In this document: one piece after another, positions 1 to 53,906 of the stretch
Numbering within the stretch: position 1 is the stretch's first letter
Layout of the letters: the number at the start of each line of letters is the position of its first letter
Assembly: GCA_934276735.1 (NCBI GenBank)
Contig: CAKQTG010000001.1
Coordinates: 418,203-482,202 of the forward strand
Direction of reading: 5' to 3'
DNA length: 64,000 nucleotides
Origin: an uncultured Alphaproteobacteria bacterium
GTDB lineage: Bacteria; Pseudomonadota; Alphaproteobacteria; Rs-D84
Notes under the pieces: generated by a model
The model's input: only the letters and a program-made list of their open reading frames with translations
What the model was told of the DNA's origin: nothing
Database searches by the model: none
Position numbers and translations under genes: made by a program

Positions 1-617
1 TCACGCGCAGAAACCAGTTCGCCCCGCACAGCACTCAGATGCGCGTCGCAACCGGTGGCGTCCACACTGCATGTGGCAAAGAATTTGTCAAAATCCGCGT
101 CGGCGGCGCATGCGCTGTAATCCGCGGTGCAATGATTGTCGGCAACCATACATGCAGAAATGTCGGTCTTGCATGATGCGGCCGATACCGTTTTGGCCGC
201 CGCCGTGCGCAGTGATGCCATTTCGGCGGTAATGCCCGCCGCGCGGCACGATTGTTCAATCAATTGGTCATATGCGTCCGATACATCATCGGCGGTGCAA
301 TCGGTAACGCGGGCGATACATTGCTGGGTGGCCCATGTGTAACGTGCCGATGGCGTCGATGGTGCAGACTTTAATTCACGTTCAGAAATAGTATACTTTG
401 CGGACGCACCGACGGAAACGCTGCGCATGCCAGTCGCACCAGGGGTGCCGGCGTTTTCGGTGCCGCAATACTGGCACCGCGCCGCCGGATTAGATGACGC
501 GTTTATCGCGCACACGGAATCCAGGCATCGCGTTAAATTTGCAACCGAACACGCTGCGAATGTGCCATATGGCACAATTGCGCCGCCAATAATAAAGAAT
601 AATATGCGTGCTTTCAT
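1..617 (-). CDS. Partial CDS (N-terminal 205 codons; continues past window start): secreted Cys-rich protein, divergent member of the large-protein family (paralogs A/B/C below). Begins MKARILFFIIGGAIVPYGTFAACSVANLTRCLDSVCAINASSNPAARCQYCG
   Basis: Manual translation of the minus strand from ATG (cat at 615-617) shows no in-frame stop down to position 1. It is not in the ORF track because it is unterminated. A signal-peptide-like N-terminus is followed by a C-x..C-LD-x-VC..C-x-YC motif matching the family motif. Confidence 0.55.
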   Translation of the reverse strand, partial: MKARILFFIIGGAIVPYGTFAACSVANLTRCLDSVCAINASSNPAARCQYCGTENAGTPGATGMRSVSVGASAKYTISERELKSAPSTPSARYTWATQQCIARVTDCTADDVSDAYDQLIEQSCRAAGITAEMASLRTAAAKTVSAASCKTDISACMVADNHCTADYSACAADADFDKFFATCSVDATGCDAHLSAVRGELVSAR

Positions 618-715
618 TTCTCTCTGTCTGGATGAATTATATCAAAAAAGTAGGGCGTGCGACAACATAAAAAAGACGTGCATAAATTATTTTTGATAAA
701 AAGTTATATTTGCTA

Positions 716-744
716 TTGACAAAAATAATATTTTGTCCTATATT
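716..744 (+). promoter_or_regulatory. Sigma70-like promoter: TTGACA (716-721), 17-bp spacer, TATATT (739-744), upstream of the 776 CDS
   Basis: Consensus -35 hexamer and 5/6 -10 hexamer at ideal spacing, about 30 bp before the ATG preceded by an aagga RBS. Confidence 0.4.
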
Positions 745-775
745 ATGGTGCGTAATGAGAATAAAAGGATTTGAA

Positions 776-1441
776 ATGCAAATATCGCAATTGAAAAACA
801 AATTGAATAAACGTGTCTTGGTGGCCACTGGTGCAGGTGTCGCGGCAAGTATTTTATTGGTGTTTGGAATCACCCAATGCAGCAGTAAAAACGACGCGTA
901 TGATGAACGTGATGCGGCCCGTGCTGAAACCGAGCAGGTTCTCTCGCGTGCAAACGAAGTTATTGACAGTCTGTGCACCGCGAATGCGGGTCTGAAACGT
1001 GCGCAGCAAGATTGCAATACGGTTGTGAGTGAACAAGAGGGTCAAATTGATGCGCTGAATGATTCTATAGCGGCATTGGCGGCATCAAAGGATTCTATTG
1101 CGGCGTTGAACGATTCGCTGCAAAATGCGGCGCGCCAGTTGCAAGAGACCAGAAAGCCACGCCAGCAGCGTCAACCCCAGCGTCAGCCACGCCGTGACAA
1201 TACACAACCACGTCGTGATGATGTGCAGCCACGTCAGGATGTCCAGAATAATCCTGGGGCTAATAATGCAGGTGTATCTGTGACTGTTGGTAACGACAAC
1301 AGTGGTGCAGTTATCGTCGGTGATAACAATACAGTTATTGTTGCCAAAGAATGTGCCTCGGTAAATGTCGCCGCCGATACGCTGAAACAGCACACTGTGA
1401 CCATCACACGCCAGTGGATTGGCACACGTCGCGTAAAGTAA
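776..1441 (+). CDS. Hypothetical membrane-anchored coiled-coil protein with a Q/R/P-rich repeat segment (QPQRQPRRDNTQPRRDDVQPRQD)
   Basis: ATG at 776 with an aaaagga RBS. The track ORF 710 starts further upstream without an RBS. There is an N-terminal TM helix, then a coiled coil, then a low-complexity tail. Confidence 0.6.
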   Translation: MQISQLKNKLNKRVLVATGAGVAASILLVFGITQCSSKNDAYDERDAARAETEQVLSRANEVIDSLCTANAGLKRAQQDCNTVVSEQEGQIDALNDSIAALAASKDSIAALNDSLQNAARQLQETRKPRQQRQPQRQPRRDNTQPRRDDVQPRQDVQNNPGANNAGVSVTVGNDNSGAVIVGDNNTVIVAKECASVNVAADTLKQHTVTITRQWIGTRRVK

Positions 1442-1462
1442 TTGACGTTACCAAAAAAACAT

Positions 1463-1493
1463 CAGTCCGCAGTGTCTGCGGACTGTTTTTTTT
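1463..1493 (+). terminator. Rho-independent terminator (cagtccgcag-tgtc-tgcggactg followed by T9)
   Basis: Perfect hairpin plus T-run immediately after the 776..1441 CDS. Confidence 0.7.
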
Positions 1494-1547
1494 ATAGACA
1501 GATAAATTCAATCTGTGTTATGATACTTAGCACAGAGAGAATTTTAC

Positions 1548-4500
1548 ATGAAATACATCAGAATTTTACTGCTTTCATTGTTTGTAATGCCGTTTGCGGC
1601 ACACGCGGCGTCGTCTGAATTTATGGTTGCGGCGCAATTGCTGGCCGCGGCAAAAAATGCCGATATTCAACAGGTCCAGGCGTTGATAAACAATGGCGCA
1701 AATGTGAATTTTGTGGATTCAACGGGTATGTCGATTGTGTGCACGGCACTGATGAACAATGACGTGCGTGCGGCTCAGATTTTACAGATGTATGGTGCTG
1801 ATGCGTCAAATTGCGACCGTCAAATTCGTGCATATAAAAATAAAAACCAGACCGGTGCGGGCTCTGGCGGGCTGTTTGGTGGGCTGTCGTCCGCCCAAAG
1901 TATTACACTGGCGGCGGCAGGTGCCGCCGTTGTTATTGGTGGGCTGTTTCTGTTGACCGATGTGTTTGATCCGGGAAACGATAATGGGTCATCTGGATCG
2001 ACCGGAAATCGCGTTGACGACAATACGGGCGGTAACACCGGCGGTGGTGCGTCGGCCGCGTTCACAACGCCGTATGGTCCGGCAATGCCAACCGCGGCGG
2101 ATGAAACCGCGAATCTGGCAACCAACCTGAATTATTACAGCCCCAGCACAGATGGTATATTAAAAGATAACTTTGCGTTGATGAACGCGTATAAACAAAA
2201 CTATCTGTTGATGATGGGGGGATATACCGCGTTGGCGCGTGGATATATGGGGATGCGGACACTGCGTAATTCATCAACGCGCGCGCCGATTTCAATCAGT
2301 GGTAATAACCTGGGGTCGGAACCAGTGCTGGGGGGGCGGCCGGTGAACGTTGCGCTGGTTACGACAAATGGTATCAATGCAACCGATGATTCATCACTGG
2401 GGGACCGCATATTGCCGTGGACAACGACTAATAATAACGGCACAACCGCAAATCCGGCGGCGATTGATATGATTTCCAGCAAATATTACAACAATAAACT
2501 GGTCGCGGGCAGTGATGGCACATCGCTGGCGGGATATACCACAACCGAAGATGCGTCGTTGTTAGATTACCTGGATTTGTCGGGATTTGGCACCGCGACG
2601 AATAACACCACGGCAACCGGCAGTGATAATCTGTTGGCGAAAATTGTCGGGGGCAAGGATTCTGGATACACCACGGCGGATTTTATCGGATTTATGCCAA
2701 ATGGCCAGATGACAATATTCAGAACCGGTGGTGGCCAGAAAATGAAAACCGTTACAGGGGCCCAGGCCAGTGGCTCTTATGCAATGGCGGGCGATGCGCT
2801 GGCCACAGGGGATACGTTGACACTGTTTGATAAAACACTGACGGTGACGCGGACCGGCAATGTGATTGTCGCAACAGACGGCACGACGACATATAACGGG
2901 TATATCGGGGCGGACGGACTGCTGTATATCGACAGTGCGGCCGATGGCAAAATCAACCAGGCATATACAATCGCCGATAATAAATTGACATTGGGCAAGG
3001 AACTGGCGGCGGCGGATTATTATAATTACAAGGCGATGTTAAACGCGGCCGCGTTGTGGAGTGTTGGTGACGCCGCGTCTGGGGGGCGTTCAATGCCAAA
3101 TATAATTGCCAATGCGTCGGTGATTTCGCCGTTGCGGGTCCAGAACGTTGAATCAATTGATGATTTGCTGTCATTTTTATCATCGCAATATGTGGCAAAG
3201 TTTGCCGAATTTGTGAACAAATATTATGATGTTGACGCGACCGATGGCACAAGTGGGACAAACAGTTTGCCCGGTGTCGACGCGGTCAAATTCTTTAATG
3301 GATTGGGATCGACATATTCGCCGTTGACGCTGTTTTCAACCGGCGCATTTGAAACTGACAGCGCGTATTCTGGCAAGACATTGTCGGCGACGTTTGAAAA
3401 TGCGGCACCGCTGGTGTTTTCAAATCTGAATCATCTGTTTATGTCGGTCGTTGCCATTGGCCAGGTTGGCACCGGCACATCTGCGGCGGAAAGTGTTTCG
3501 GGGTACACGCCCGCGAATAAATATCAAATCAGTCAATGGCATGACACCACATCTGATAAATATTACAAGGCACGCGTATGCGGTATCGCGGGGCGGGGCG
3601 CAAATGGGGTTGACCCATGGTGCTTTGCCGCCACAGGTGTGACCGATGAACTGGCAACGGCGGCGGCGGCCGGTGCGGCGGGCGCGGTGCAATCGGCGTT
3701 CAGTTATATGGACAATAAACAATTGTTCGCGTTGTTGGCGTTGACGGCCGATGGGCCGTATCTGGGGTCGGTGAGTGCCGGTAAATCTGTGACCAAGGTG
3801 GAACTGATTTCATATCTGCAAAATCTGTATACGATGCCCAGTGAATATACATATCGCTGGGAAAATGGTGGCGAAAACTATCTGGATGTTTTCAAAGAGG
3901 TTTTCGGTTATGGTCTGATAAACGTTGCGCGTGCGACCACCCCAAATACCAAGGTATATTATTATGATGGCACCAATATCGTATCCAGCAAGGGTAACGC
4001 ATACTGGCGTGCGGCAACAAATACCACGTTCCGGGCGTCGTCGGCGTTCAGCCCGCGTATGGCAACCATCAGCGCGCCGTTCTTTGATAAACTGGAAAGT
4101 ATCGATGGTGATTTGACGTTGCCGCGTATTTGGAAAAATGAATTCGCGGTTGGTACGCAATCGCGTCGTGGGTTGTATATGGGTGATGTCTTGGGCGAAT
4201 TCCGGACAGGCACCGCTGCCGCGCCACGCACCCAGATTGGCAATATCGGATTTTCAATGACCGCATCGCCACGCGCATATGACGACAATATGGCCGGAAT
4301 TGATACGATGCAATTTGATTATGCACGTGGGGCATGGAACTTTGCCGCCGGATACCAGCGTTACCTGACCGATGGGGCGTCGCGCTTTGACGGGTTGTCA
4401 AATCCGATTTTGTCCCTGGCGTCAAATGCGGTTGTGTCTGGGGCGGATTATAATGCGGGCCGTTGGTCATTTGGTGCACGCGCGTTTTCGGGTGCAATTA

Positions 4501-5180
4501 CCAGCGAAGAATTACTGGAAAACGATCCAACGATTTCATCGCAGTATGCGCCTGCGCGACTGGGCCTGATTCAGGGCGGCAATGCGCACGTTGCATTGCG
4601 TGGTGATAAATTTGGCATTTCGACCGCGTTTGGTAATGCGCGTGAATCTGATACGTTCCTGGGGGCCCAGACGGGCGGATTGCTGGACCTGGGGGCGGGC
4701 GATACAATGTATGTTGATACTGAATTGTCATATCGGCCAACCGATGGCGTCGCGTTCAAATTGCGCGGGACGGTCGCGCGCACAACGTCGGATATGACGG
4801 GTGGGGATTTCATCTTGGGAATGTCTGATGTTTATTCTGATGCGTTTGGGGTTGGAATTGATGCCGGTAATTTCAGTTTTGCCGTATCGCGCCCGCTGGG
4901 GGTATCGCATGGAACGATGCGGTATGCACATGCCGACTATGACATTATTGATGTGGGCGATGGCAAATATGATATTGGCATATCAAACGCCGGTGTGCGT
5001 GATGTCAACCTGGCCCCGGAATCCCGCGAATTGCGGTTCAGTGGCGCGTATCGTCGGGCATTGGGCGCGTTCACCGACGGGGCGGTTGGGTTTATATATC
5101 GCGTAAATCCAAATCATACAGACGCGTTTGGTAATGAATCCATATTCATGTTGAAATTAAATCACAGATTGGGGATATAG
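1548..5180 (+). CDS. Large (1210 aa) secreted surface protein. It has an N-terminal signal peptide and one ankyrin repeat, then a hydrophobic segment, then a long T/G/N-rich passenger-like region with a possible C-terminal beta-domain.
   Basis: Signal peptide MKYIRILLLSLFVMPFAAHA. Ankyrin-like segment LLAAAKNADIQQVQALINNGANVNFVDSTGMSIVCTALMNND. The alternating hydrophobic pattern in the last ~400 aa is suggestive of an OM beta-barrel. The C-terminus does not end in F/W, so the autotransporter call is uncertain. Confidence 0.7.
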   Translation: MKYIRILLLSLFVMPFAAHAASSEFMVAAQLLAAAKNADIQQVQALINNGANVNFVDSTGMSIVCTALMNNDVRAAQILQMYGADASNCDRQIRAYKNKNQTGAGSGGLFGGLSSAQSITLAAAGAAVVIGGLFLLTDVFDPGNDNGSSGSTGNRVDDNTGGNTGGGASAAFTTPYGPAMPTAADETANLATNLNYYSPSTDGILKDNFALMNAYKQNYLLMMGGYTALARGYMGMRTLRNSSTRAPISISGNNLGSEPVLGGRPVNVALVTTNGINATDDSSLGDRILPWTTTNNNGTTANPAAIDMISSKYYNNKLVAGSDGTSLAGYTTTEDASLLDYLDLSGFGTATNNTTATGSDNLLAKIVGGKDSGYTTADFIGFMPNGQMTIFRTGGGQKMKTVTGAQASGSYAMAGDALATGDTLTLFDKTLTVTRTGNVIVATDGTTTYNGYIGADGLLYIDSAADGKINQAYTIADNKLTLGKELAAADYYNYKAMLNAAALWSVGDAASGGRSMPNIIANASVISPLRVQNVESIDDLLSFLSSQYVAKFAEFVNKYYDVDATDGTSGTNSLPGVDAVKFFNGLGSTYSPLTLFSTGAFETDSAYSGKTLSATFENAAPLVFSNLNHLFMSVVAIGQVGTGTSAAESVSGYTPANKYQISQWHDTTSDKYYKARVCGIAGRGANGVDPWCFAATGVTDELATAAAAGAAGAVQSAFSYMDNKQLFALLALTADGPYLGSVSAGKSVTKVELISYLQNLYTMPSEYTYRWENGGENYLDVFKEVFGYGLINVARATTPNTKVYYYDGTNIVSSKGNAYWRAATNTTFRASSAFSPRMATISAPFFDKLESIDGDLTLPRIWKNEFAVGTQSRRGLYMGDVLGEFRTGTAAAPRTQIGNIGFSMTASPRAYDDNMAGIDTMQFDYARGAWNFAAGYQRYLTDGASRFDGLSNPILSLASNAVVSGADYNAGRWSFGARAFSGAITSEELLENDPTISSQYAPARLGLIQGGNAHVALRGDKFGISTAFGNARESDTFLGAQTGGLLDLGAGDTMYVDTELSYRPTDGVAFKLRGTVARTTSDMTGGDFILGMSDVYSDAFGVGIDAGNFSFAVSRPLGVSHGTMRYAHADYDIIDVGDGKYDIGISNAGVRDVNLAPESRELRFSGAYRRALGAFTDGAVGFIYRVNPNHTDAFGNESIFMLKLNHRLGI

Positions 5181-7111: not shown

Positions 7112-8524
7112 ATGCTAGAATATTTACGTAATGCAGCAGATAAACCAGTGGCAAAAGTTTTAATTGCCATATTGGCGTTTTCTTTTGTTGGTTGGGGTGT
7201 CGCCGAATGGGTTTTCGGGGGCAGTCGTGGTGATAACACATTGGTTCGCGTTGGTGATTCTGAGGTCACAATGCAACAGTATAATGCCGAACGCTCGCGC
7301 CAGTTGGCCCAGATGACGCGTGAACAACAGCGTGCGGTCTATACCGACGCGCAAACGGGTGCGGCATTTACGGCACGCGTGTTGGGTGACCTGTCAACCC
7401 AGCGTATGGCAGAAAACCGCGCAAATGATTTGGGCTTTGTCGTGACTGATGCACGTATCGCGCGTGAAATTCGTGAATTCCCAGAATTTCAACAAAATGG
7501 AAAGTTTTCAGCATATCTGTTTGATGTCGTGTTGGCAAATTCCGGCTATACCGAGGCCCAGTTTGCCGATGTCCTGCGTAATCAAATTTTGCGTGGGTAT
7601 GCGATTGGCGCGATTGGGATAAAAATGCCAGTGCCTGGGTTCGCGGCGACGGCGACATATAATGCGCGCTATGGCCAGAAACAGATTGATTTCGCAACGG
7701 TAAAATTTTCTGATTTCAAGGTTGGACAACCAACAGACGCGCAATTACAGGAATATTACACCGCGCATCCGCAAATCGTCCCAGAAAGTCGCACTGTTTC
7801 GTATGTCTTGATTCCAGCAGAAATGAGCAAACCTGACGCCTATGACGCAGGTTTGGCCATCGCGCAAAAGGTTGAAGATGACATCATCGCAGGCGAAACG
7901 ATGGCAACGGCGGCCAAACGTCACGGTGCGAAATACGTATCGCTGGGCGCGTTCACGGCGGATAAACGTCCAGCAGACGCAATTATGAACGACAAAATGG
8001 TTGCCAAGATTTTTGATATGGAGGTCGGCCTGGAAAGCGAACTGACTGAAACCAAACAGGGTTTTGTAATTGTTCGCGTGGACAAGGTTGCGCCCCAGCA
8101 TAACGCAGAATTTGCATCTGTGAAAAAGAATCTGGTTGCCGATTGGCAGCGTGACGCCCAACGCAAACAGGCATACGTTCGTGCAAACGAAATCTTGGTT
8201 GATTTGAACAAGACGGGCAAATTGGCGAATAAAAAATCTGTGACTGTGTCGCGCACATCGGGCGCACCGACAGATGTTCTGGTTGCGGCATTCCGTGCGC
8301 CGGCCGGTGATAATTCCATTGTTGATGGTGCGGACGCGTTCTATGTTCTGCATACTGGGGAATTTGTTGCGCCAAAAATGGACGCGAAAAAAATGGCCGA
8401 TGTTCGCAAAGAATTACAGAACACACAATCGCGCGAAATTACAGACGATTATAATGCGTTCTTGATTCGCACGTATCCGGTCAAAATAAATCACAAGGTT
8501 TATGATAAATTCTTTGCAAAATAA
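7112..8524 (+). CDS. ppiD: Periplasmic chaperone / peptidyl-prolyl isomerase PpiD-like (SurA-family), N-terminally membrane-anchored
   Basis: N-terminal TM segment (VAKVLIAILAFSFVGWGV), then a SurA/PpiD-like chaperone domain. 470 aa. Good RBS. Confidence 0.65.
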   Translation: MLEYLRNAADKPVAKVLIAILAFSFVGWGVAEWVFGGSRGDNTLVRVGDSEVTMQQYNAERSRQLAQMTREQQRAVYTDAQTGAAFTARVLGDLSTQRMAENRANDLGFVVTDARIAREIREFPEFQQNGKFSAYLFDVVLANSGYTEAQFADVLRNQILRGYAIGAIGIKMPVPGFAATATYNARYGQKQIDFATVKFSDFKVGQPTDAQLQEYYTAHPQIVPESRTVSYVLIPAEMSKPDAYDAGLAIAQKVEDDIIAGETMATAAKRHGAKYVSLGAFTADKRPADAIMNDKMVAKIFDMEVGLESELTETKQGFVIVRVDKVAPQHNAEFASVKKNLVADWQRDAQRKQAYVRANEILVDLNKTGKLANKKSVTVSRTSGAPTDVLVAAFRAPAGDNSIVDGADAFYVLHTGEFVAPKMDAKKMADVRKELQNTQSREITDDYNAFLIRTYPVKINHKVYDKFFAK

Positions 8525-8525
8525 T

Positions 8526-8549
8526 AAAACGCCCACTTGGGCGTTTTTT
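8526..8549 (+). terminator. Rho-independent terminator (aaaacgcccacttgggcgtttttt)
   Basis: Hairpin plus T-run directly after the ppiD stop. Confidence 0.7.
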
Positions 8550-8563
8550 AGTCGGGGGCGTAT

Positions 8564-9124
8564 ATGACAACAAAATGGGCGGATGGCAAAAATCGATGCG
8601 CGTGGGCAAATCCGAATAATCCAGAATACATAAAATATCACGACACTGAATGGGGGCGCACCGTGCATGATGATGCGCGGCTGTTTGAAATTCTGGTGCT
8701 GGAATCGTTTCAGGCGGGCCTGTCGTGGGAATGCATTTTGGCAAAGCGTGAAAACTTTCGCTGCGCATTTGATGGATTTGATGCACGCCGCATTGCCGAA
8801 TATACAGACAGCGATGTCAGCCGATTGATGGCGGATGCGGGGATTGTTCGCAATCGATTAAAGATTTGCGCGACAATAAAAAATGCGCGCGTATTTTTGG
8901 AAATCGTAAGCGAATTTGGTTCGTTTGACGCGTACATTTGGCGCGTGACGGGCGGGGCGGTAATCCGAGAGGTGGGCCGCACACATTCAGAAATTTCGGA
9001 CGCGATTTCCCGCGACCTGCGCCGGCGCGGTATGCGATTTGTTGGCACAACAATCATCTATGCATACTTGCAGGCCATCGGCGTTATCAACGGCCACAGC
9101 GCAGATTGCTGGTGCACAAAATAA
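8564..9124 (+). CDS. tag: DNA-3-methyladenine glycosylase I
   Basis: Tag-family sequence (KNRCAWANPNNPEYIKYHDTEWGRTVHDD…LEIVSEFGSFDAYIW…) with the Zn-binding C/H residues conserved. Confidence 0.85.
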   Translation: MTTKWADGKNRCAWANPNNPEYIKYHDTEWGRTVHDDARLFEILVLESFQAGLSWECILAKRENFRCAFDGFDARRIAEYTDSDVSRLMADAGIVRNRLKICATIKNARVFLEIVSEFGSFDAYIWRVTGGAVIREVGRTHSEISDAISRDLRRRGMRFVGTTIIYAYLQAIGVINGHSADCWCTK

Positions 9125-9193
9125 TCCCGCCCCGAATAGGGCTATATGTGCGATACGCGAGATTGAAGGGTTTAAAGCGAATCTTAATTTGCG

Positions 9194-10099
9194 TCAATTA
9201 CTCTGTTTTTTCTTTTGAATAACAATCATTATATGTGCACTTAATGATAACATATCTGGACACTCGCAAATTGAAAAATGCAAATCCAACCATTTTTTAT
9301 ATTGGGTTTTATTTTTTGCAATTTCATTAAATTCTTTATGTGCGTTTTGATTGGGCCATTCAAGAGCAACCTGATGTAATAATTTTGTGTTTTTTGCTGT
9401 TTTTAAAACTAAATCTTTCAATTCACTTGGCCAATAAAAATGTGCATACGAACAACCAACGAACCAATTATCATCACCGGTTTGTGCTAGTAAATTCGTT
9501 TCTTGCCAAAAATTTTTTTCGTTTTTATATCCATATGTTTTCAAATATCCTTTAAAATCTTTAACACATAAATTTAACACCGCCGGTCTTGCCATAACAG
9601 ATATAAATATCGGCGCCCCTGGTTTTGATACACGAACTAATTCTTTAATTGCTTTCTTTCTATCTTGTTCTGTTCGTAAATGTGATAACGGACCACCAAT
9701 ACATAATACCATATCAAAAGAATTATCTTTATATGGTAATTCTGTGATAGACCCTAAATCAACAGAATCAATAAATTTACCAACACGATATTGTTTGATT
9801 TTTCTTTTTGCTAATTCTAATTCTTTATCAGATATGTCCAGCAACGTCATATGATGACCTTGTTTTGCTAAATCTATTGTATACCGTCCAGGTCCGCCAC
9901 CTGCATCCAATATTTTCATACCCTTTTTCAAATACTTTTTATAAAAATATTCTGTTGTTTGAAATTCCAGCATATGTGCTGCATTTTTTGTTGTTCTGGT
10001 GAATTCTTTTTCTGCGGATTCATTATAAAAATCTTTTACGGAAACACCATTTTTGCGTTTCTTTGGTTTAACAAATAATGATTTAATGAACTGAAACAC
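9194..10099 (-). CDS. Class I SAM-dependent methyltransferase, encoded in a sharply AT-rich segment (probably acquired horizontally)
   Basis: SAM-binding motif ILDAGGGPGRYTIDLA. Start set to GTG at 10099, 8 nt after a strong aggaaggag RBS, with a tataat -10 box upstream. The track ORF start at 10180 is a TTG without an RBS. Local GC is far below the flanking genes. Confidence 0.65.
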   Translation of the reverse strand: MFQFIKSLFVKPKKRKNGVSVKDFYNESAEKEFTRTTKNAAHMLEFQTTEYFYKKYLKKGMKILDAGGGPGRYTIDLAKQGHHMTLLDISDKELELAKRKIKQYRVGKFIDSVDLGSITELPYKDNSFDMVLCIGGPLSHLRTEQDRKKAIKELVRVSKPGAPIFISVMARPAVLNLCVKDFKGYLKTYGYKNEKNFWQETNLLAQTGDDNWFVGCSYAHFYWPSELKDLVLKTAKNTKLLHQVALEWPNQNAHKEFNEIAKNKTQYKKWLDLHFSICECPDMLSLSAHIMIVIQKKKQSN

Positions 10100-10240
10100 G
10101 ATTTTTCTCCTTCCTCGTATTATACCACAGAAAGTTCGAAAATGATAATTTTCTGCAATTTTCCCAAACCGAACTTTCAAACTCGGTAAAAATATTACAA
10201 AACGAAAGAAATCTTGCCCCGATTGGCAAGTTTTGTTTTA

Positions 10241-10577: not shown

Positions 10578-10651
10578 TGGTTGGGGCAGCTGGATTCGAA
10601 CCAACACTGACGGAGTCAGAGTCCGGAGTTCTACCGTTAAACTATGCCCCA
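10578..10651 (-). tRNA. tRNA-Gln (anticodon CTG)
   Basis: The reverse complement folds as a cloverleaf. It has U1-A72 like the E. coli tRNA-Gln alignment, anticodon loop CUCUGAC, T-arm GGTTCGAATCC, and an encoded CCA. Confidence 0.85.
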
Positions 10652-18289: not shown

Positions 18290-20845
18290 CTATTGCCCAG
18301 TGCCTGTGCCACCGCCCGATGTGTTGTCGCTTGTCGTTGCGCCATTGGTGGTTGAGTTGTTATTACTGGTTGTTTCGTCATCTGAGGCACGGCAATAACC
18401 CCATTTTGTATTTGCACCTGTTTCGGAATAGAATTTCTGGTGCAATTTATGTCCCGTAATGTCATGCTTGCCGTTACCACCTTTCGTGTTGTTTGTGGCC
18501 TGTTGGTCGGTTGTGGTTTCGGTGGAATCGTTTTCTTCTTGGTCAATCCATTGCGTATCAACCCACAGTCCGTTCAGACGTTTGCATTCCGCCGCTAGCA
18601 CTGTTGCCATTTCAACACGTATTGAATCCATGACGACATTTACATCTTCCATAACAGTGGTCGGCAATACGTAATTGGATTTGGTCGCCTCGGACGGACG
18701 GACACAGGTCTGCATTGCGTAGCGCACCATTTTTTGATACAGACTGCCGATATAGTCGGTGCCACATTTGCTGGTGTCAACCTCTGGTTCGTCCGGCGTT
18801 TCTGTGCCGCCGCATACACCATCCGTGCATGGCTGGCAACTGTTGCCGGTGGTGAGGGTGTTGTCTGCAACCCATATACCGTTTTTACGGACCGCCAGGA
18901 AGTAACCTTGTTTGCAACGCGTGTATTGTTTGCTGGTTGGGCAAATGTATCCGGATGCGGTTGATGTGTCGCCATCGTCACCGCCCGGTGTATTGCCGCC
19001 GGTATCATCATCGCCACCACTGTCGCCATTATTGCGATTCCACAATTCCTGGTTACACTGGTAATTTGTGGCGTATTGCTGTTCGCCCGGCGCATACACG
19101 CGGCAACCATACGGATATGCGTGCAGACTGTCGTTAGATGGGACGGCGCACATGTCGCGTGCAAATTCTTGCAAAGTGACACGGCATTCCTTGCCAATCT
19201 TTTGATCGGTGATGTTGCGCATGGCCTGGACCAGTAAATCCAGGGCGTTGCCGGAACCGTCGCTATATAACATGCTGCACGCCTGTAATTTTTCCTTGCA
19301 CATTTCTTCGGATAATTCCAGGCGCGACCCCCGTAATAATTGCTCTTTGACATTACTAAAATCTTTTAACGATTTGCTCTGTTCATCGTAACAGGCATTT
19401 ACGACGTCCAGACATTCGTTTTTGACGGTGCGGATTCGTTCATGCTGGCCCTGGTATATTTCGGCGATTGCCTGGCGCATGAATTCATCCCACACATCGT
19501 CGGCCAGATCGCGACACGTGTCCAGTCCGCGCGCGGCGTATGCACGCTTGCTGTTTAATTCGGCGACAATCAGGCGGTTTGAAGGATTGGTCAACACGTC
19601 GCCCGATAATGAAATCTGGGTTTCCAATTGGTAAAAATCCGCCGTGTAAATAGGTTCGCCCTTGTCCCGGGTCAGATACCGGCCAGATATATCCAGACAA
19701 TGAACATAATCTGTGCCACACGCCGTGTCGGCGGTGATATCCTTGCGCACCTGGGCGATACAGTCGTTGATTGATGTTGAATTATGGGCGTTATAATTTT
19801 CCAGACGCGCGTCGTTCATTTCGCGCTCGGTGCTGCGTATCGTGCCCTGGGCGGTCGCCAGTTTTTTATTCAGTGCCGTCAGCAATGTTGTGCAATCGTT
19901 TTCAATATACATGCCATACGCTGCGACAACCATGTTCAGGGTTGATCGTGACGGACAGCGTTCAGAAACCAAATCGGCACACTGGCTGTGCACCGCGTTG
20001 TATAATGATTCCCCGGTCAGGTTCGCAATGTTTGCGCCCGATGCCAAATCTGTGGTTGCCCAGATTGCGTTTATGTCGCCGGCGATGTCCAGTGTCCCCA
20101 GTGTTGATAACGAATTTGATTTGGTCTTGGTTAAAACCGCACTGATACCGGCCAGTTTTTGCGCCGATGATGAATTGTCGCGTGCGGTTGATGCCGCAGT
20201 TTCGCCGGTGGTCGCGTTGACCATTGCCTTGACCTCGGCCGCGGTTTTGGGAATAACCTCTATATTCAAGTTCTTGAAATCTTGCAGTTGGTCAGATGCC
20301 TGGCCCAGGGCGCGTTCACGTGATTTTATTTCGGTCAGCTTGGACGAGCATACGCACCGACGGTATGTGTCATCTTGTTTTGCACAGAATTGATCCATGC
20401 ATGAAAAGTATGCGTCACGGCACGTGTTGTATCCGGTGCCAAATGTGTTTGTGCCGGCCGCCGATGTGGTGGTGGCGCGGGCGACCGCCCCGCTGCGCGC
20501 GACGGTTTTTGTTGCACTGCGTGCAGATGATTGTGTCGTGGTCGCACTGCGCGCGGTGGTTGTTGCACTGCGTGCGGTGGTGTTGGTGCGGGCCGCACTG
20601 CGCGCCGTGGCGGTGCGGTTGACCGTATTGCGTGCGGTGGTGCGCGCCGTTGCATTACGTGCGGTGGTCGCGGTTGCCCCCGTGCGCGTTGATGTTTGTT
20701 GTGATTGTGCGGTGTCTGATTTTGCGCGCGTGGTGACACTGTCTCTGGGCGTGGTGCGGGTGACGCTGGACGCGCTGCGCACCGCGGCATCGGCAAAACC
20801 GATGCCGGCACAGAGTGTTGCGGCAAAAAGCAAAATCTTTTTCAT
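18290..20845 (-). CDS. Paralog A of the large secreted Cys-rich protein family (851 aa). Signal peptide, then a T/A/R-rich tandem-repeat linker, then the family motif CRDAYFSCMDQFCAKQDDTYRRCVCSS, then a Cys-rich helical body.
   Basis: Start moved to ATG 20845 (MKKILLFAATLCAGIGFADA). Motif and downstream blocks (ACGTDYVHCLD, CRDLADDVWDEF) align with paralogs B and C. Confidence 0.75.
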   Translation of the reverse strand: MKKILLFAATLCAGIGFADAAVRSASSVTRTTPRDSVTTRAKSDTAQSQQTSTRTGATATTARNATARTTARNTVNRTATARSAARTNTTARSATTTARSATTTQSSARSATKTVARSGAVARATTTSAAGTNTFGTGYNTCRDAYFSCMDQFCAKQDDTYRRCVCSSKLTEIKSRERALGQASDQLQDFKNLNIEVIPKTAAEVKAMVNATTGETAASTARDNSSSAQKLAGISAVLTKTKSNSLSTLGTLDIAGDINAIWATTDLASGANIANLTGESLYNAVHSQCADLVSERCPSRSTLNMVVAAYGMYIENDCTTLLTALNKKLATAQGTIRSTEREMNDARLENYNAHNSTSINDCIAQVRKDITADTACGTDYVHCLDISGRYLTRDKGEPIYTADFYQLETQISLSGDVLTNPSNRLIVAELNSKRAYAARGLDTCRDLADDVWDEFMRQAIAEIYQGQHERIRTVKNECLDVVNACYDEQSKSLKDFSNVKEQLLRGSRLELSEEMCKEKLQACSMLYSDGSGNALDLLVQAMRNITDQKIGKECRVTLQEFARDMCAVPSNDSLHAYPYGCRVYAPGEQQYATNYQCNQELWNRNNGDSGGDDDTGGNTPGGDDGDTSTASGYICPTSKQYTRCKQGYFLAVRKNGIWVADNTLTTGNSCQPCTDGVCGGTETPDEPEVDTSKCGTDYIGSLYQKMVRYAMQTCVRPSEATKSNYVLPTTVMEDVNVVMDSIRVEMATVLAAECKRLNGLWVDTQWIDQEENDSTETTTDQQATNNTKGGNGKHDITGHKLHQKFYSETGANTKWGYCRASDDETTSNNNSTTNGATTSDNTSGGGTGTGQ
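20480..20720. repeat. Intragenic tandem repeat (~24-30 bp units encoding TTARNATARTTARNTVNRTATARSAARTNTTARSATTTARSATTT) inside paralog A
   Basis: Reiterated gcactgcg(t/c)gc(g/a)gtggt… units are visible in the DNA. Confidence 0.6.
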
Positions 20846-20956
20846 CCTTGGCTTTGTGATAATGATAGCAAAAATGCCCTTTTCGGGGCAAGGGTTATTT
20901 CGCACAATCGCGCAATTTTTTTGCAAAAATAATCCCGCAGATTACGGGACTTTTTA

Positions 20957-21345: not shown

Positions 21346-23514
21346 ATGAGATTAGGCTTGTTTTTCACATTGTTGTGTGTTGTGCCGGGACTGGCATATG
21401 GGGCGGCGCGTGATGATACGAACGTTCGTGTCGGGGTGACGCGTATGTCAATGGCGGGTGCGCGTGCGCCAAATATGACGGGAAATCTGGGCGGAAATAA
21501 AACCACCACGCCGACGATACCAACCACCAGCAGCAGTGGTGGCACAACAAATCCGACGCCAAATCCAACACCCACTCCCACACCAGAACCGACACCGGCC
21601 CCCGCGCCAAATCCGGGCACGTCCGACGCTGGCACTGACACATCGTGTCGCACGGCGTATCGCGCGTGTATGGATGAATTCTGCCTGTTGGACGAGAGCG
21701 AGGGTAATCGTTGCGCCTGTTCGGATAACATAAACAAATCAAAATCATTGATTCAAGAAATTCAAAAAATTCAATCAGACGCTGATAATTTATACACCGA
21801 GGGGGTAGAGCGCGAACAACTGGGGGCCAAGGCAAAACTGGTATTTGGCCAGAGTGCGGCCGCACAGAAAAGTTCGCGTGCATCGGGACTGAGTTTTACC
21901 GAGTGGTTAAACAGCGACAATAATTCGGATTCGCTGGGTGCGGACGAAGATATTGGCGATGGTCTGTATTCGATGGCGGCAACATATTGTGCCGACGCAT
22001 TGGCGAAATGTGGCAGTTCTGCCGATATGGAAGAGGCGTTATATTCTCGTCAAATTGTTGCCGATTGCAAGGCGTTTGATTCATATCTGGCCGACCAGAA
22101 ATCAAATGCCCAGGCCAACAAACGCACGGCCGAGGCCGCTGTGCGCAAGGCGCGTCTGGAAATGTTGGATACAACAAATAAATATAACCGCGGCGAATGC
22201 CTGTTGGCGTATAAATCGTGTATCGCGGACAAGGGCGGCTGTGGCGCGAACTTTGAAAACTGTTTGGATCGCGACCTGTTGGGGCGTCGTGCAAATGCGT
22301 GCGAAAATGTTCTGGACCAGTGTATGGCGGTGCGGGACAGTGTATTACAGGATTGGGATGCAGAATCCGAAAGTATTTTAGTTGATGCGGCGAAATACGC
22401 GGATAAAAATGCCCGCGCAACATGTCTGGCACGGATTCAGGTCTGTTTGGAAGATGGATGCAGCACGGCAACAAATTCGGCGTGCCTGACCGATGTCAAG
22501 GTTGCGGCCGGTGTTTGCCCGGTTATTACCGAATGCGAAGAAATGATTCCGGGTATCCAAAGTGCGGTCAATGATAAACTGGGGTATCTGCGGACGCATT
22601 TCTGCCAGAACGATATTGATAAATGCCTGCAAAGCAAGTGCGGTGAAAACTTTACTGCGCCGGAATGCGTTGGTAAAAGTGCAACGGAAATTGCCGCGCT
22701 GTGCCCCCAGGATATGTATCCGTCATGCAAAAACGAAACCCAATTTGACATAATTGTGCAATCGGTTTTGTTACAGATGGATTACCAGATGTTGCAAGGG
22801 TGCCTGAATTACTTTGGCGAACAGTTGGGCAAGGTTTGCGGCACGGATATGTCGTGCCTGCCGACGGATACGACGATTGCGTCACTGACGTCGGTGCCGG
22901 ACGATTCTGCGGCATTGGCGCAGTTGCGCGAAACCGTGCGCAGCAATGTTGCCACGTCGGTGGATGAATTCTTTACCCAGTTTGAACAGGATAAAACGGT
23001 TGCTGCCTGTGCAGACAGCCAGAAACCCGCCGGTAAAAAATCATTGGGCGACACGGTGTTCAACAGTGCGAAAATGATCGCACAAATCGGGGCGGAAAAT
23101 CGTGCGATGCGCGCATTGGAAACCAAGATTTCAGAACTGTCGCGCCAGCAAGATTTGAATGCGGCCGAAAAGAACTGTCTGAATACATACAAGGTGGAAT
23201 CGCCGGACAAATCGTCCAAGAATTACAGTTATATCCGCAGTGTATCGTTTGAACCATCGTTGCGTAATTGCCATGTGTGCCGTATGCAACAGGTCTGCGA
23301 AACGGGTGGCGAATCCAAGGGAACCGCGGGCCTGAAAGGATTGGCGGGCGGCCTGTCGGCGGGTGCGGCGGCTGGCACGATGGTGACCCCGGGGTGGGGC
23401 ACGGCAATCGGCGGTGTCGTTGGCGCGGTTGGTGGTCTGTTCGCAGGGCGCAGTGCGGGTGGCAAACAAGAATTCTGCCAGGAAATTGAATCCTGTGAAG
23501 ATATAAATATGTAA
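21346..23514 (+). CDS. Paralog B of the large secreted Cys-rich protein family (722 aa). Signal peptide, P/T-rich linker, motif CRTAYRACMDEFCLLDESEGNRCACSD, Cys-rich body, C-terminal RNCHVC box, glycine-zipper hydrophobic tail.
   Basis: Start moved to ATG 21346 (ggtggagtcatATG; MRLGLFFTLLCVVPGLAYG). Blocks YSRQIVADC, NKYNRGEC, CGANFENC and CENVLDQCMAVRDSV are shared with paralog C. Confidence 0.8.
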   Translation: MRLGLFFTLLCVVPGLAYGAARDDTNVRVGVTRMSMAGARAPNMTGNLGGNKTTTPTIPTTSSSGGTTNPTPNPTPTPTPEPTPAPAPNPGTSDAGTDTSCRTAYRACMDEFCLLDESEGNRCACSDNINKSKSLIQEIQKIQSDADNLYTEGVEREQLGAKAKLVFGQSAAAQKSSRASGLSFTEWLNSDNNSDSLGADEDIGDGLYSMAATYCADALAKCGSSADMEEALYSRQIVADCKAFDSYLADQKSNAQANKRTAEAAVRKARLEMLDTTNKYNRGECLLAYKSCIADKGGCGANFENCLDRDLLGRRANACENVLDQCMAVRDSVLQDWDAESESILVDAAKYADKNARATCLARIQVCLEDGCSTATNSACLTDVKVAAGVCPVITECEEMIPGIQSAVNDKLGYLRTHFCQNDIDKCLQSKCGENFTAPECVGKSATEIAALCPQDMYPSCKNETQFDIIVQSVLLQMDYQMLQGCLNYFGEQLGKVCGTDMSCLPTDTTIASLTSVPDDSAALAQLRETVRSNVATSVDEFFTQFEQDKTVAACADSQKPAGKKSLGDTVFNSAKMIAQIGAENRAMRALETKISELSRQQDLNAAEKNCLNTYKVESPDKSSKNYSYIRSVSFEPSLRNCHVCRMQQVCETGGESKGTAGLKGLAGGLSAGAAAGTMVTPGWGTAIGGVVGAVGGLFAGRSAGGKQEFCQEIESCEDINM

Positions 23515-23530
23515 TATTCGGGCATAAAAT

Positions 23531-25972
23531 ATGAATATAAAAAATATATTGACGTTTGTGATTTGTGGTGTTGTGGCCGTGGGCGCGGGTGACGCGTTGG
23601 CGGCGGCCAAGACATCGAAACAGGCGGCAATACAAACCGGGACAAATGTTCGGGCGCGGCTGACGGCAACAGGTCTGTATGACCAGGAATGTTATGACGC
23701 GTATTATTCGTGCATGGATCAATTCTGTATCGCGGATAATTCCAGTGGGGGCAGTTGCGCATGCAGTGACGAAAACGCAAAATATGAACAACAACTGGCC
23801 GAAATCCAAGATATGGTGGACGAGGCCGCACGTATCCGCACCGAAGAGGTTGAAAAGGTTCGCGCGGGTGCGGATGCCGATATTATATTTACGGGCGAAC
23901 GCAAATACGATGAAAACGGCAATATTATCAAGACGGGCGAATTGACCGCGGCAGAAAAAAAAGCCCAAGACCGCCAGAGTTTGATGGCGTTGTTTAACGC
24001 GACCAGCGACGATGACGAAGATGTTGTAACAGGTATCGCGGACAAGGCCGGCAACGCGCTGTATAACGCGGCCCAGGAACTGTGCACGGCCCAGATTCCG
24101 GACAAATGTTCGTCTGATTTGAATTTCTTGACCCAATTATATTCACGCCAGATTGTATCAGACTGTCGCGGTTTTGAAAACAGCATCAACGCCAAAATGG
24201 CCACCGCAAAGCAAGACTTGGTTACTGCCCAGGGCGAAGTGCGCACCGCACTGCAAGAAAGTTTTGAATCGGCCAATAAATATGATTTGGGCACATGCAT
24301 GGTGGAATTTAAAAAGTGCATGCAGACCGATGATGCCTGTGGCGCGGGTTGGGAAAATTGTGTTTCGACAATTGCATCTGAAAATATGCAAAACAATACC
24401 GCGGTCAGCACCGCCGGCACCACGGTTGCAACGGTTGATAAATATGACATAACCACGTCAACCATGGAAATCTTGAATTCCAAGCGCACCATTTGTGAAA
24501 AGGTTTTGGACCAATGCGTCGCCGTCCGCGACCAGGTTTGGCCGGCGTTCCTGCGCGAAGCGGCCCCAACGATAAAGGTTGCCGAATCCCAGGTTGAATC
24601 AAAGTTTCGTCAATCGTGCCTGGGCACAATTTCCGACTGTATCCAGACGGCGTGTCGCGACGATATCGCGGGCAAGGGCGTTGCAACAATGGACGCATGC
24701 TTGGCACGTCCCGATATGGCACGCAGTTTCTGCAAGGTTGAAATTGACCCGTGTGAACGCATGGAACCGCAAATTTGGGACTATGTAACCGATAAACTGG
24801 CGGCGATGCGTGTTGATGCCTGCACGAACGAGGTCAAAGAGTGTTTTACCGCGGATACACGTTGCGGCGCGAATTTCCAGAACTGTATCGGTATGGATTA
24901 CGATTATATTCACGATATTTGCCCGATTGACACGTTGGTTGTCTGCAAACAGAATAACAAAGACTTTTCAATGGATGATTTGGATTCTATGTTGATGGGG
25001 CTGTATCTGAATATTGATAACAGTGCGCTGACCCAGTGTGAAAACCTGGTCGACACCAAAATGGCCGAAATTTGTGGCAGCACCACCGACTGTAACAAAT
25101 TCGCCAGTGATGATACAATTGGCACCGGATCATTGCGTTCCCAGAAAGATGGCACGACGTATCGTGTGACCGGTATGATTTCGTTCGGCAGTATCAAGAT
25201 GGGCGACGCGTCTGGCAAAACGATTGACAATGGCGATGGCAAGACTGTGCGTCTGGGCCCCGGTGAAATCGGTGTTGCAGAATACCTGAACCAGATTCGC
25301 ACGCGCAATTCGTCGGTCAAAAATGCCGATGGCATCATTTCGTCAATTGAAGAAGAACTGAACAACATTGCTGGCACAATCAATCGCACAATTGAAATGA
25401 TTGAACAGGACCCGCAAATCCAATACTGTGTGAACGGGCGCGATTTGTCCCAGATTACGGGCAAGGCGAACCAGAAAACCACGGCACGTTTTCCGAACCT
25501 GTTAAACAGTGTGAAAATGCAAATCGCGGTCGCTGCACTGCGCCAGGCCCAGGATAACTATAACGCCAAACTGAATAAACAAATCGCAGACGCAACCAAA
25601 GACGCGTCCACAGATTTGGCGCAATATATGTGCCAGAAAATGGCCGAAACCGGCGGGGCGGGCACAACCGGAATTTCATCATCAACGCCGCTGGCGGCAC
25701 CATATGCAATCAGTTATGATGTGGGCTCGGGCCTCAGTAATGATGACCTGACACGTGGCGGGACGGGTGAAACATCAATTACGACCACCGCGGGCAGTGG
25801 CGTCACCAAAACCGTGACCAGTCTGTTTAACCGTGAAACACGTAATTGCCACGTCTGCACCACAACCACCACACAGAGTTGCACTATAAAGGGCGGCAAT
25901 TGGTTCCGCAAGGCGAACAAGAATTGCGACGTTAAAACCGATGGCCCGAATTGTGAAGATATCGCAATGTAA
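23531..25972 (+). CDS. Paralog C of the large secreted Cys-rich protein family (813 aa). Signal peptide, motif CYDAYYSCMDQFCIADNSSGGSCACSD, Cys-rich body, C-terminal RNCHVC box.
   Basis: 16 bp downstream of paralog B, so probably in an operon with it. Blocks YSRQIVSDC, NKYDLGTC, CGAGWENC and CEKVLDQCVAVRDQV are conserved. Confidence 0.8.
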   Translation: MNIKNILTFVICGVVAVGAGDALAAAKTSKQAAIQTGTNVRARLTATGLYDQECYDAYYSCMDQFCIADNSSGGSCACSDENAKYEQQLAEIQDMVDEAARIRTEEVEKVRAGADADIIFTGERKYDENGNIIKTGELTAAEKKAQDRQSLMALFNATSDDDEDVVTGIADKAGNALYNAAQELCTAQIPDKCSSDLNFLTQLYSRQIVSDCRGFENSINAKMATAKQDLVTAQGEVRTALQESFESANKYDLGTCMVEFKKCMQTDDACGAGWENCVSTIASENMQNNTAVSTAGTTVATVDKYDITTSTMEILNSKRTICEKVLDQCVAVRDQVWPAFLREAAPTIKVAESQVESKFRQSCLGTISDCIQTACRDDIAGKGVATMDACLARPDMARSFCKVEIDPCERMEPQIWDYVTDKLAAMRVDACTNEVKECFTADTRCGANFQNCIGMDYDYIHDICPIDTLVVCKQNNKDFSMDDLDSMLMGLYLNIDNSALTQCENLVDTKMAEICGSTTDCNKFASDDTIGTGSLRSQKDGTTYRVTGMISFGSIKMGDASGKTIDNGDGKTVRLGPGEIGVAEYLNQIRTRNSSVKNADGIISSIEEELNNIAGTINRTIEMIEQDPQIQYCVNGRDLSQITGKANQKTTARFPNLLNSVKMQIAVAALRQAQDNYNAKLNKQIADATKDASTDLAQYMCQKMAETGGAGTTGISSSTPLAAPYAISYDVGSGLSNDDLTRGGTGETSITTTAGSGVTKTVTSLFNRETRNCHVCTTTTTQSCTIKGGNWFRKANKNCDVKTDGPNCEDIAM

Positions 25973-26837: not shown

Positions 26838-26858
26838 TAAAAATAAAGGAGTTGACAT

Positions 26859-27744: not shown

Positions 27745-27759
27745 CGCGGGGGATATATT

Positions 27760-40200: not shown

Positions 40201-40228
40201 AAACGGGGCGGGGCCCCGTTTTTTTATT
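40198..40228 (-). terminator. Terminator for the dsbA-like gene (aaaaaacggggcggggccccgttttttt)
   Basis: Hairpin flanked by A/T runs, immediately 3' of the minus-strand CDS. Confidence 0.65.
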
Positions 40229-41048
40229 TTTCCAATGCCCGGATAATCTGGTCATATGGAATTGCACCTGGGAATGCCTGTTCCTGGACAATCAAGAACG
40301 GTGTGCCGCTGATTTCAAACTGTTGTGCCAAATCACGAACGTTTGCCATTTCACGGGCAACAACCTCGCCATTCATGTCTTTCTTTAATTGAGTGGTGTC
40401 CAGACCTGCTTCTTCGGCCATTTTCAGCACGTTCTTTTCAACCTTTTCGGCGATTTTAGACTGGTCTTTCAAATCGTCCTGGGTATAGAATTCACGTGTC
40501 ATCATCATGTCAACCAATTTTGCGGCCTTTTCTGGGCTCTGCAATTTTGCAGCAATCGCGGCCTTGGCTGGGGCATCAGATAATGCGCCATGGATAGAGA
40601 AGTTTTTAACAACAACGCGGACGTCATTGCGGGCCTTTAATACACGGTCCAGTTCACCGTGAACACGGCGGCAGTATGGGCAGCTGAAGTCTGTCCAGAT
40701 GTAGATTGTCTTTTTCGCATCCTGGGCACCCAAAATCGGGGCATCAGCAATCATTGTGTCGGCGTGATCGCGAACAAATGTGCGAACGGCCTTGTTCTTT
40801 TCAGCGTTCAGCTGTTCCTGGGCACCGTTGGCCATCTGTTGGATAATCAGCGGATTGACCGATGTCAGGTAATATGGAACATACAAGCGGCAAACGCTGC
40901 CTGCGACCAAGATGATGGCAAAAACCTTTGTTGCTTTCTTTGCCAATTTCAAACCAGCACTGGATTCGTTACCGATATGGGCCAGCAACATGCCGCCAAA
41001 CATATACAGCGCAATACCCAGAACCAGAACCAAGATTGTCCAAGTCAT
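40224..41048 (-). CDS. DsbA-family thiol:disulfide interchange protein with N-terminal membrane anchor
   Basis: Thioredoxin-fold CxxC active site (FSCPYCRR). N-terminal TM helix. RBS aaggag. Confidence 0.75.
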   Translation of the reverse strand: MTWTILVLVLGIALYMFGGMLLAHIGNESSAGLKLAKKATKVFAIILVAGSVCRLYVPYYLTSVNPLIIQQMANGAQEQLNAEKNKAVRTFVRDHADTMIADAPILGAQDAKKTIYIWTDFSCPYCRRVHGELDRVLKARNDVRVVVKNFSIHGALSDAPAKAAIAAKLQSPEKAAKLVDMMMTREFYTQDDLKDQSKIAEKVEKNVLKMAEEAGLDTTQLKKDMNGEVVAREMANVRDLAQQFEISGTPFLIVQEQAFPGAIPYDQIIRALEK

Positions 41049-53800: not shown

Positions 53801-53906
53801 GTAATCCATTAGGAATTTTCTATTTGCATTATGTGCTAGAATGTGTAATTCTTGTGGTGAAGCGTGTGTGGGCTGGTATTGTTTTTTATGTAAGGGGGAA
53901 CGAAAA

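Follow-up and report, generated by a model that had tools for sequence, protein, structure and literature searches.

The first gene in the window analyzed here (a 64,000-nucleotide (nt) stretch of an uncultured alphaproteobacterium of the order Rs-D84) is a cysteine-rich gene, p285, that runs off its left edge at positions 1..617 on the minus strand. Three larger Cys-rich genes, paralogs A, B and C, lie further into the window, and two more genes, p519 and p989, follow p285 beyond base 1. Read from 617 to 1, the minus strand is open for 205 codons with zero stops upon translation (start MKARILFFIIGGAIVPYGTFAACSVANLTRCLDSVCAINASSNPAARCQYCG). The initial annotation had presented this frame as an unannotated open reading frame (ORF), missing from the ORF list, that encodes a divergent member of a Cys-rich family. 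Retranslation returned the same stop-free frame and the peptide exactly as quoted there, and the ORF is indeed missing from the mechanical list, because that list leaves out any ORF cut by the window end. Its “unannotated” status, in turn, is an artifact of the window edge, since a public pipeline had already called p285 as a hypothetical protein.

An exact-sequence look-up of the neighboring 221-amino-acid (aa) protein led to contigs that continue past the edge. Specifically, European Nucleotide Archive (ENA) contig ERZ28614899 scaffold_5 (484 kb; locus L001) is identical to the window over an overlap of 11,441 nt (0 mismatches), as is a Logan contig (L002) over 10,270 nt (0 mismatches). On L001, the complete p285 gene spans 8985-9842, starts at the same ATG as window position 617, and encodes 285 aa. 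Its stop lies 241 nt beyond window base 1, such that 80 codons and the stop are missing from the window, which holds the 5' 72% of the gene (the first 205 of 285 codons). This extension upstream of base 1 had been proposed in the initial annotation, and the early stop contemplated there was not seen. The open frame, the identical contig and the 571 homologs described below speak for a genuine gene, and we regard both the gene and its place in the Cys-rich family, taken up below, as very likely. More generally, edge-truncated frames dropped from ORF tracks hide real genes, and contig extension is the remedy.

The p285 product contains 20 Cys (7% of its residues), spaced as [7,4,11,2]-48-[6,16]-24-[6,6,6,12,6]-47-[8,4,7,13,6], all of them preceded by a Sec-type signal peptide (codons 1-21, MKARILFFIIGGAIVPYGTFA; 555..617, minus strand) with a signal peptidase I (SPase I) type A-x-A site. 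In 72/72 orthologs, the first Cys is preceded by a K/R n-region and a hydrophobic core, and only 3/72 are lipobox-compatible (tested as [LVI][ASTVI][GAS]-C; the commonest contexts are AATT-C and VAAT-C), which together argue for a Sec/SPase I substrate that is not a lipoprotein. Export by the Sec signal peptide, with cleavage by SPase I, is thus strongly supported at the level of sequence; lipid attachment at Cys23 (FAAC) was considered and ruled out, as no lipobox is conserved. The mature protein, encoded throughout on the minus strand, opens with a five-Cys motif, C23-x7-C31-LD-x2-C36-x11-C48-x2-C51 (465..551), that is invariant in the aligned p285 family. A three-Cys module follows (C100-x6-C107-x16-C124; 246..320), with conserved Y116 and I120, which aligns with C185/C193/C212 of paralog C by BLASTP, hhalign and the spacing test described below. 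The first six-Cys module, C149-x6-C156-x6-C163-x6-C170-x12-C183-x6-C190 (48..173), is the statistically decisive shared domain in hhalign and hidden Markov model (HMM) comparisons, and the protein ends at residue 285, after a second six-Cys cluster. An internal duplication relating the two six-Cys clusters was examined and is not supported (probability below 5%).

An AlphaFold2 model, made on a sequence (P0001) 98% identical to the L001 p285 with a 72-sequence alignment, is all-alpha, with a mean predicted local distance difference test score (pLDDT) of 77.8 that rises above 90 for residues 150-285, and includes a 65-residue helix (191-255). On the predicted helices, the C-x6-C pairs fall on one helix face, two turns apart. 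We consider it probable, with good confidence, that p285 is an exported, disulfide-rich helical protein. Residues 63-96 (330-431, minus strand; G70, L82, A85, P86, R92, Y93 and W95 invariant in the alignment) are highly conserved yet mostly modeled at low confidence and with little regular structure, which suggests a partner-binding segment and a candidate linker. A sequence-profile search of the PDB with p285 returned nothing below E 0.2, and a Foldseek search of the PDB with its model returned two matches only, both at E 9.6. The model of paralog C is poor (pLDDT 63); its helix order parallels that of p285 over the first ~410 residues, and its beta structure is confined to the C-terminal part, where residues 748-812 are beta-rich. 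Searched against the PDB with Foldseek, this low-confidence model found no neighbor (best E 0.2, TM < 0.1).

Paralogs A (852 aa; 18290..20848, minus strand), B (722 aa; 21346..23514, plus strand; with a C-terminal Gly-zipper segment) and C (813 aa; 23531..25972, plus strand; with three six-Cys modules) are clearly related to one another (B vs. C, E 5e-61; A vs. C, E 1e-27). The initial annotation had placed p285 among them on the basis of its signal peptide and N-terminal motif, and counted at least four members in 26 kb. Both features are present, A-C and p519 also begin with signal-like peptides, and the motif (C-x6-7-C-[LM]D-x2-C-x9-11-C-x1-2-C) has exactly four matches in the six-frame window, namely p285, A, B and C, and is absent from p519. 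In a profile-profile comparison, the motif is not significant by itself. The count, correct for these four, rises to at least five members in ~28 kb with p519.

What carries the assignment, instead, is the six-Cys module and the order of the Cys. In profile-profile comparisons of single modules, p285 residues 143-196 matched two modules of paralog C (residues 425-478, hhalign probability 96%, E 4e-9; residues 250-335, 91%) and one of p519 (residues 158-212, 93%, E 2e-7). The module is described by C-x6-C-[MILF]-x4-6-C-G-x-[DN]-[FYW]-x2-C-x11-14-C-x5-7-C, in which CG-x-[DN]-[FYW] forms a non-Cys signature common to p285 and the paralogs. In a leave-family-out test over 296 six-frame window segments, with other matches judged at domain E <1, an HMM built from the B, C and p519 modules, without p285 sequences, recovered the edge ORF at E 1.3e-8 (4.4e-6 with B and C only). 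Paralog A, which was outside the training set, scored E 4.7e-5 with the module HMM. The reciprocal p285-only HMM recovered paralog C at E 1.2e-5, and no other segment of the 296 matched the module HMMs below domain E 1. Further, the first 20 mature Cys of paralog B are collinear with those of p285: they are spaced as [6,4,9,1]-89-[6,18]-43-[6,6,6,12,6]-33-[6,4,7,10,5], and from the first mature Cys 19/19 spacings agree within tolerance, 9 of them exactly, compared with 17/19 for C, 12/19 for A, a maximum of 15 in 5,000 shuffles of gap order, and 9/19 for two unrelated Cys-rich proteins of the same genome. Over its full length, and with richer alignments built from 80 fetched loci, p285 (1-284) aligned collinearly with C (1-411) at E 7.6e-5 (62%), with ~16 Cys in register. 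The best local hhalign score was 45.3; column shuffles gave 26.6 +/- 2.1 and the reversed profile 26.0.

Several results nevertheless weigh against membership, and favor the alternative that p285 is an independent Cys-rich protein whose resemblance to A-C is convergent or an artifact of composition. Whole-protein similarity is weak: BLASTP with p285 is nonsignificant against A and B and reaches E 5e-4 against C. The N-terminal motif alone gives a profile-profile probability of 3% (E 0.014), the second six-Cys cluster is not significant individually, and a first hhalign run, superseded by the richer alignments, covered 26 columns only at 47% probability. Shuffles of 12-column blocks scored up to 44.0, nearly the native 45.3, so that the p285-C profile signal comes mostly from local modules, and chiefly from one. 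Finally, the p285 profile, run exhaustively with HMMER, recruited no large paralog at E <= 1e-3. Against independence stand the leave-family-out result with its reciprocal matches and zero false positives, the module alignment at 96% with its shared non-Cys signature, and the complete agreement in spacing with B, which neither the shuffles nor the two same-genome controls reached; the controls also gave nothing in hhalign, where Cys-rich p989 matched p285 in nothing beyond the signal peptide. The p285 operon is, in addition, physically beside the A/B/C cluster in many genomes. We therefore judge an unrelated origin to be highly improbable. Formal alignment to A-C thus found the similarity whose absence would have told against the initial annotation, and its claim of a divergent family member is borne out by the six-Cys module HMM and by Cys collinearity.

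Within this family, sequence comparison strongly supports p285 as a minimal, core-only member, with 5+3+6+6 Cys that correspond to the N-terminal core of the large paralogs. It has in common with A-C and p519 the Sec signal peptide, the three-Cys and six-Cys modules, the order and nearly the same spacing of the 20 Cys, the lineage and, often, the neighborhood. In contrast to the large paralogs, it lacks a low-complexity N-terminal linker, coiled-coil inserts and a third module, and, in contrast to B and C, a beta-rich C-terminal half and a CEDI[AN]M tail. It has no Gly-zipper segment either. The absent C-terminal half makes p285 core-only and does not exclude membership. In B and C (window 22900-23514 and 25800-25972), that half carries a shared 'NCHVC' motif, and the proteins end in 'CEDINM' and 'CEDIAM'; motif and tail, not found in A, could be a sorting or anchoring signal. 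Pfam and NCBIfam hold no family for p285, p519 or A-C, public records for A-C and p519 read 'hypothetical protein' only, and p285 orthologs in NCBI metagenome-assembled genomes (MAGs) are annotated likewise. That the family is unnamed, uncharacterized and lineage-specific, with p285 its smallest member, is strongly supported by these comparisons.

Three observations concern the immediate surroundings of the paralogs and the other Cys-rich genes of the window. The gene that comes right after paralog A, in the same orientation (17526-18230, minus strand), encodes an exported 234-aa protein with 9 Cys that has no family match, and is probably cotranscribed with A. At 23 nt past paralog C begins a gene for a small-conductance mechanosensitive channel, MscS (25995-27194, plus strand), with a BOF (OB-fold) periplasmic protein behind it, which sets an osmotic-stress gene beside the putative envelope family. 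An exported 688-aa protein (27757-29823, plus strand), with ~49 Cys, ~100-aa repeats and a cEGF-like match, belongs to a different Cys-rich family, to which the six-Cys module HMM gives no match.

Beyond base 1, p285 is followed by p519 and p989. The p519 gene (519 aa; L001 7404-8963, minus strand) lies 21 nt downstream of p285 and begins 262 nt beyond window base 1. Its product combines a signal peptide, a low-complexity linker, two six-Cys modules, a Gly-zipper-like hydrophobic segment and an acidic tail, and is, by its modules, the fifth family member, immediately past the window edge. Of its Cys, 15 are conserved, and the total is odd in 71/79 orthologs (range, 15 to 35), which suggests that extra Cys arrive in pairs and that one conserved Cys is unpaired. 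The p989 gene begins 3 nt after p519 on L001 and encodes an N-terminal CarboxypepD_reg-like domain (E 6e-13) and many EGF-like Cys repeats. Across loci from different species, p285 and p519 are neighbors in the same orientation in 80/80, p989 comes after p519 in 60/80 (many contigs being truncated), and the A/B/C cluster lies within 8 kb in ~24/80 (e.g., L007 and L045). This arrangement would make p285 the first gene of a putatively cotranscribed p285-p519-p989 operon.

Homologs of p285 are numerous. A search of 5.8 billion proteins, clustered at 90% identity, returned 571 matches at E <= 1e-3; among the 120 listed, lengths are 275-317 aa and identities to the query 56-98%. When one genome per species was scanned, 229 genomes contained relatives. 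Those with meaningful labels are, with two exceptions, MAGs of Candidatus Enterousia, 'uncultured Rickettsiales' or 'Alphaproteobacteria' that come from the gut of humans, ruminants, horses, mice and chickens. These two (L032 and L051), deposited as 'Bacteroides fragilis' and 'uncultured Muribaculaceae', carry a complete Enterousia p285-p519 operon among Enterousia-type neighbors, and are probably contigs mis-binned in public MAGs. Searched exhaustively by HMMER against 1.84 billion representatives, the p285 family profile matched 67 proteins at E <= 1e-3, most of ~260-340 aa with many others being shorter fragments, and these 67 form a tight orthologous group of their own, none tied to the large paralogs by that search. 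The single long match (P0304, 840 aa), which HMMER pulled in through 10 stretches, proved on inspection to be a Cys-poor tandem-repeat protein and was rejected as spurious.

Conservation within the group is high. In an 81-sequence alignment, 20 Cys columns are each kept in at least 85% of the sequences, and 74/81 orthologs have exactly 20 mature Cys. Over 39 genomes, identity to the window protein averages 60.1% for p285, and GrpE from those loci averages 63.1% (r = 0.80); p285 thus evolves at the rate of a housekeeping gene, about as slowly as GrpE. All this marks p285 as a true core gene, passed on vertically, in Candidatus Enterousia (order Rs-D84). The genomes of this lineage are reduced (<1 Mb), with no respiratory chain, incomplete glycolysis and many uncharacterized membrane proteins, while rod-shape and peptidoglycan genes are retained, and the bacteria have been proposed to depend on a partner cell (PMC12306168). 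A Pfam scan of the window proteins gave RodZ, SLT and OmpA matches. Our literature search found no paper that ties Enterousia or Rs-D84 to cysteine-rich proteins.

The window encodes a membrane-anchored DsbA-like thiol oxidase (40224..41048, minus strand; Pfam DSBA, E 2.7e-20) with an N-terminal anchor and a CPYC active site, a candidate catalyst of disulfide formation in the family. We propose that this protein would oxidize p285 and that the 20 Cys would form ten intramolecular disulfides stapling a helical bundle, with the i/i+7 spacing expected to bring Cys pairs onto one helix face. Alternatively, the Cys could stay reduced and bind Zn, Cu or Fe-S, or buffer redox, with no structural disulfides. 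A Cys content of 7%, an anaerobic habitat in a lineage without respiratory quinone-dependent chains (PMC12306168), a single CxxC (C48-QY-C51) and a faint match to the zinc-ribbon-like DUF7577 (E 0.04) would suit such a role, as would the absence of DsbB or VKOR among the window ORFs scanned against Pfam. However, C-x6-C on predicted helices dominates in p285, rather than CxxC or CxH metal sites; p285 has no conserved His, and Pfam and NCBIfam scans gave no metal-binding family match. Further, the even count of 20 in p285 and the paired extra Cys of p519 orthologs fit disulfides, and the CPYC oxidase has been kept in a genome of <1 Mb. A metal-binding or redox-buffering protein is, on this balance, improbable.

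With the disulfide reading retained, the best explanation overall, which we hold with moderate confidence, is that p285 is a core-gene, exported, helical Cys-rich family member of a disulfide-stabilized envelope complex. In such a complex, p285 would be the soluble periplasmic subunit, p519 a membrane-associated paralog (given its Gly-zipper segment and one conserved unpaired Cys), and p989 a large Cys-rich partner with CarboxypepD_reg-like and OmpA-type peptidoglycan-binding domains. The outcome would be a disulfide-stabilized protein scaffold of the cell envelope, comparable in function to the chlamydial Cys-rich complex, and unrelated to it. That the family builds such a scaffold is, from sequence features, a tentative proposal that we place somewhat short of probable. 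The fuller version is doubtful in its entirety: p285, p519, A, B, C and p989 would form a previously undescribed disulfide-cross-linked envelope scaffold in Rs-D84, built on a new six-Cys helical module without a structural neighbor in the PDB and invented independently of the chlamydial outer membrane complex strategy, with p285 as a soluble linker subunit and the unpaired Cys of p519 making intermolecular bonds.

Several points count against an envelope complex. The p285 model has a predicted template modeling score (pTM) of 0.41, such that its global packing is uncertain; the OmpA-type domain of p989 is borderline, at 27.1 bits against a cut-off of 27.2; and physical interaction among p285, p519 and p989 is argued from gene order alone. 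As to oxidation, no DsbB or VKOR was seen in the Pfam scan noted above, and Rs-D84 is reported without respiratory chains, which bears on how DsbA would be re-oxidized in the anaerobic gut (PMC12306168).

A different possibility is that p285 and its paralogs are secreted effectors or adhesins, released or displayed at the surface, that attach to or manipulate a host or partner cell rather than serving the envelope of the producing cell. It has been proposed that Rs-D84 and Enterousia live as obligate symbionts or parasites on metabolites drawn from other cells, with many hypothetical membrane proteins for cell-cell interaction (PMC12306168). The neighbors of p285 include an exported protein with weak ankyrin-repeat matches and a Chlam_PMP-repeat autotransporter, both typical host-interaction modules, and small disulfide-rich proteins are frequently extracellular. 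Three observations speak against this role. First, p285 evolves as slowly as GrpE and keeps its Cys and long sequence blocks invariant in 229 species, drawn from many host animals, which is not the pattern of arms-race effectors or antigens. Second, neither an anchor nor an autotransporter or beta-barrel domain is present in p285, and no secretion-system gene lies next to it that could take it across the outer membrane. Third, its operon partner p989 bears a peptidoglycan-binding OmpA-type domain, albeit as a borderline match. We consider an effector or adhesin role unlikely.

For the envelope complex that we favor, the closest functional analogy would be the Cys-rich outer membrane complex (COMC) of Chlamydia, in which OmcA and OmcB occur with Pmp autotransporters and are oxidized via DsbA/DsbB (PMC6752827, PMC6812762). 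In both, a host-dependent Gram-negative bacterium with a small genome exports Cys-rich proteins and also encodes Pmp-type autotransporters and DsbA. The autotransporter of the window (14279-17449, plus strand; 1056 aa) joins Chlam_PMP repeats to an autotransporter beta-domain, here in an alphaproteobacterium. Pfam and NCBIfam searches gave no Chlam_OMP6 or Chlam_OMP3 match for p285, p519 or A-C. The two systems also differ in that p285 is predicted to be all-alpha, whereas OmcB is beta-rich, and in that Enterousia has retained the machinery for peptidoglycan. For COMC-like intermolecular cross-linking, the sole hint, an indirect one from sequence, is the odd number of conserved Cys in p519.

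Two other systems resemble p285 in how Cys may stabilize helices. Helicobacter Hcp proteins, built from Sel1-like repeats (SLR), are secreted and all-alpha, with regularly spaced Cys pairs that staple helix pairs (PMC1941758). For p285, there was no Sel1/SLR match in Pfam and no SLR structure in the Foldseek search of the PDB with its model. The module of p285 also packs 6 Cys into ~45 aa, whereas SLR proteins have one disulfide per 36-aa repeat. In the twin CX9C and CX3C (CHCH) proteins of the mitochondrial intermembrane space, paired disulfides tie two antiparallel helices after oxidative folding. These share with p285 a periplasm-like compartment and Cys that recur at a constant distance in helical turns, but the p285 spacings are x6/x4/x12 rather than x9/x3, p285 is far larger and multi-module, its route would be Sec/DsbA rather than Mia40, and Pfam gives it no CHCH match.

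Candidatus Enterousia is a widespread uncultured gut lineage of humans and animals, and the five family paralogs total ~9.6 kb, ~1% of a genome of ~900 genes. That p285 is conserved like a housekeeping gene suggests a core structural function in the envelope, one without a name in current databases. With the six-Cys module and the p285-p519-p989 operon defined, there are concrete targets for determining structures, for proteomics of the envelope, and for raising antibodies against these bacteria or enriching them.

On the other side of p285 lies a divergent intergenic spacer (618..775), described in the initial annotation as a promoter-containing 158-bp spacer. The length is as given there, and a consensus scan predicts one sigma70-like site on each strand: TTGTCG-18-TATAAT, preceded by TG, at 665->636 on the minus strand, and TTGACA-17-TATATT at 716-744 on the plus strand, both being consensus matches only. 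Positions 1..1600 contain six sigma70-like sites, compared with 2.2 +/- 1.3 in shuffles. The divergent neighbor, cc221 (776..1441, plus strand), is a membrane-anchored coiled-coil, Q-R-P-rich protein that evolves fast (mean identity 33% across genomes). After it comes an exported ankyrin-repeat protein of 1210 aa (1548..5180, plus strand), with weak Ank matches below the Pfam cut-off, which is a syntenic neighbor, divergently upstream of p285 in 73/80 loci.

Elsewhere in the window, GC content dips to 0.41 over 8001-10000, compared with ~0.49, across a methyltransferase gene (9194-10180, minus strand) and the sequence next to it, near a tRNA (10581-10651); this stretch may be acquired DNA. Finally, two adjacent small ORFs (53841-54284 and 54248-54583, both plus strand) encode signal peptides and many Cys (e.g., MKKYFFVCAVMALVSGADA|AAPTCTV...) and may be further small secreted Cys-rich proteins.

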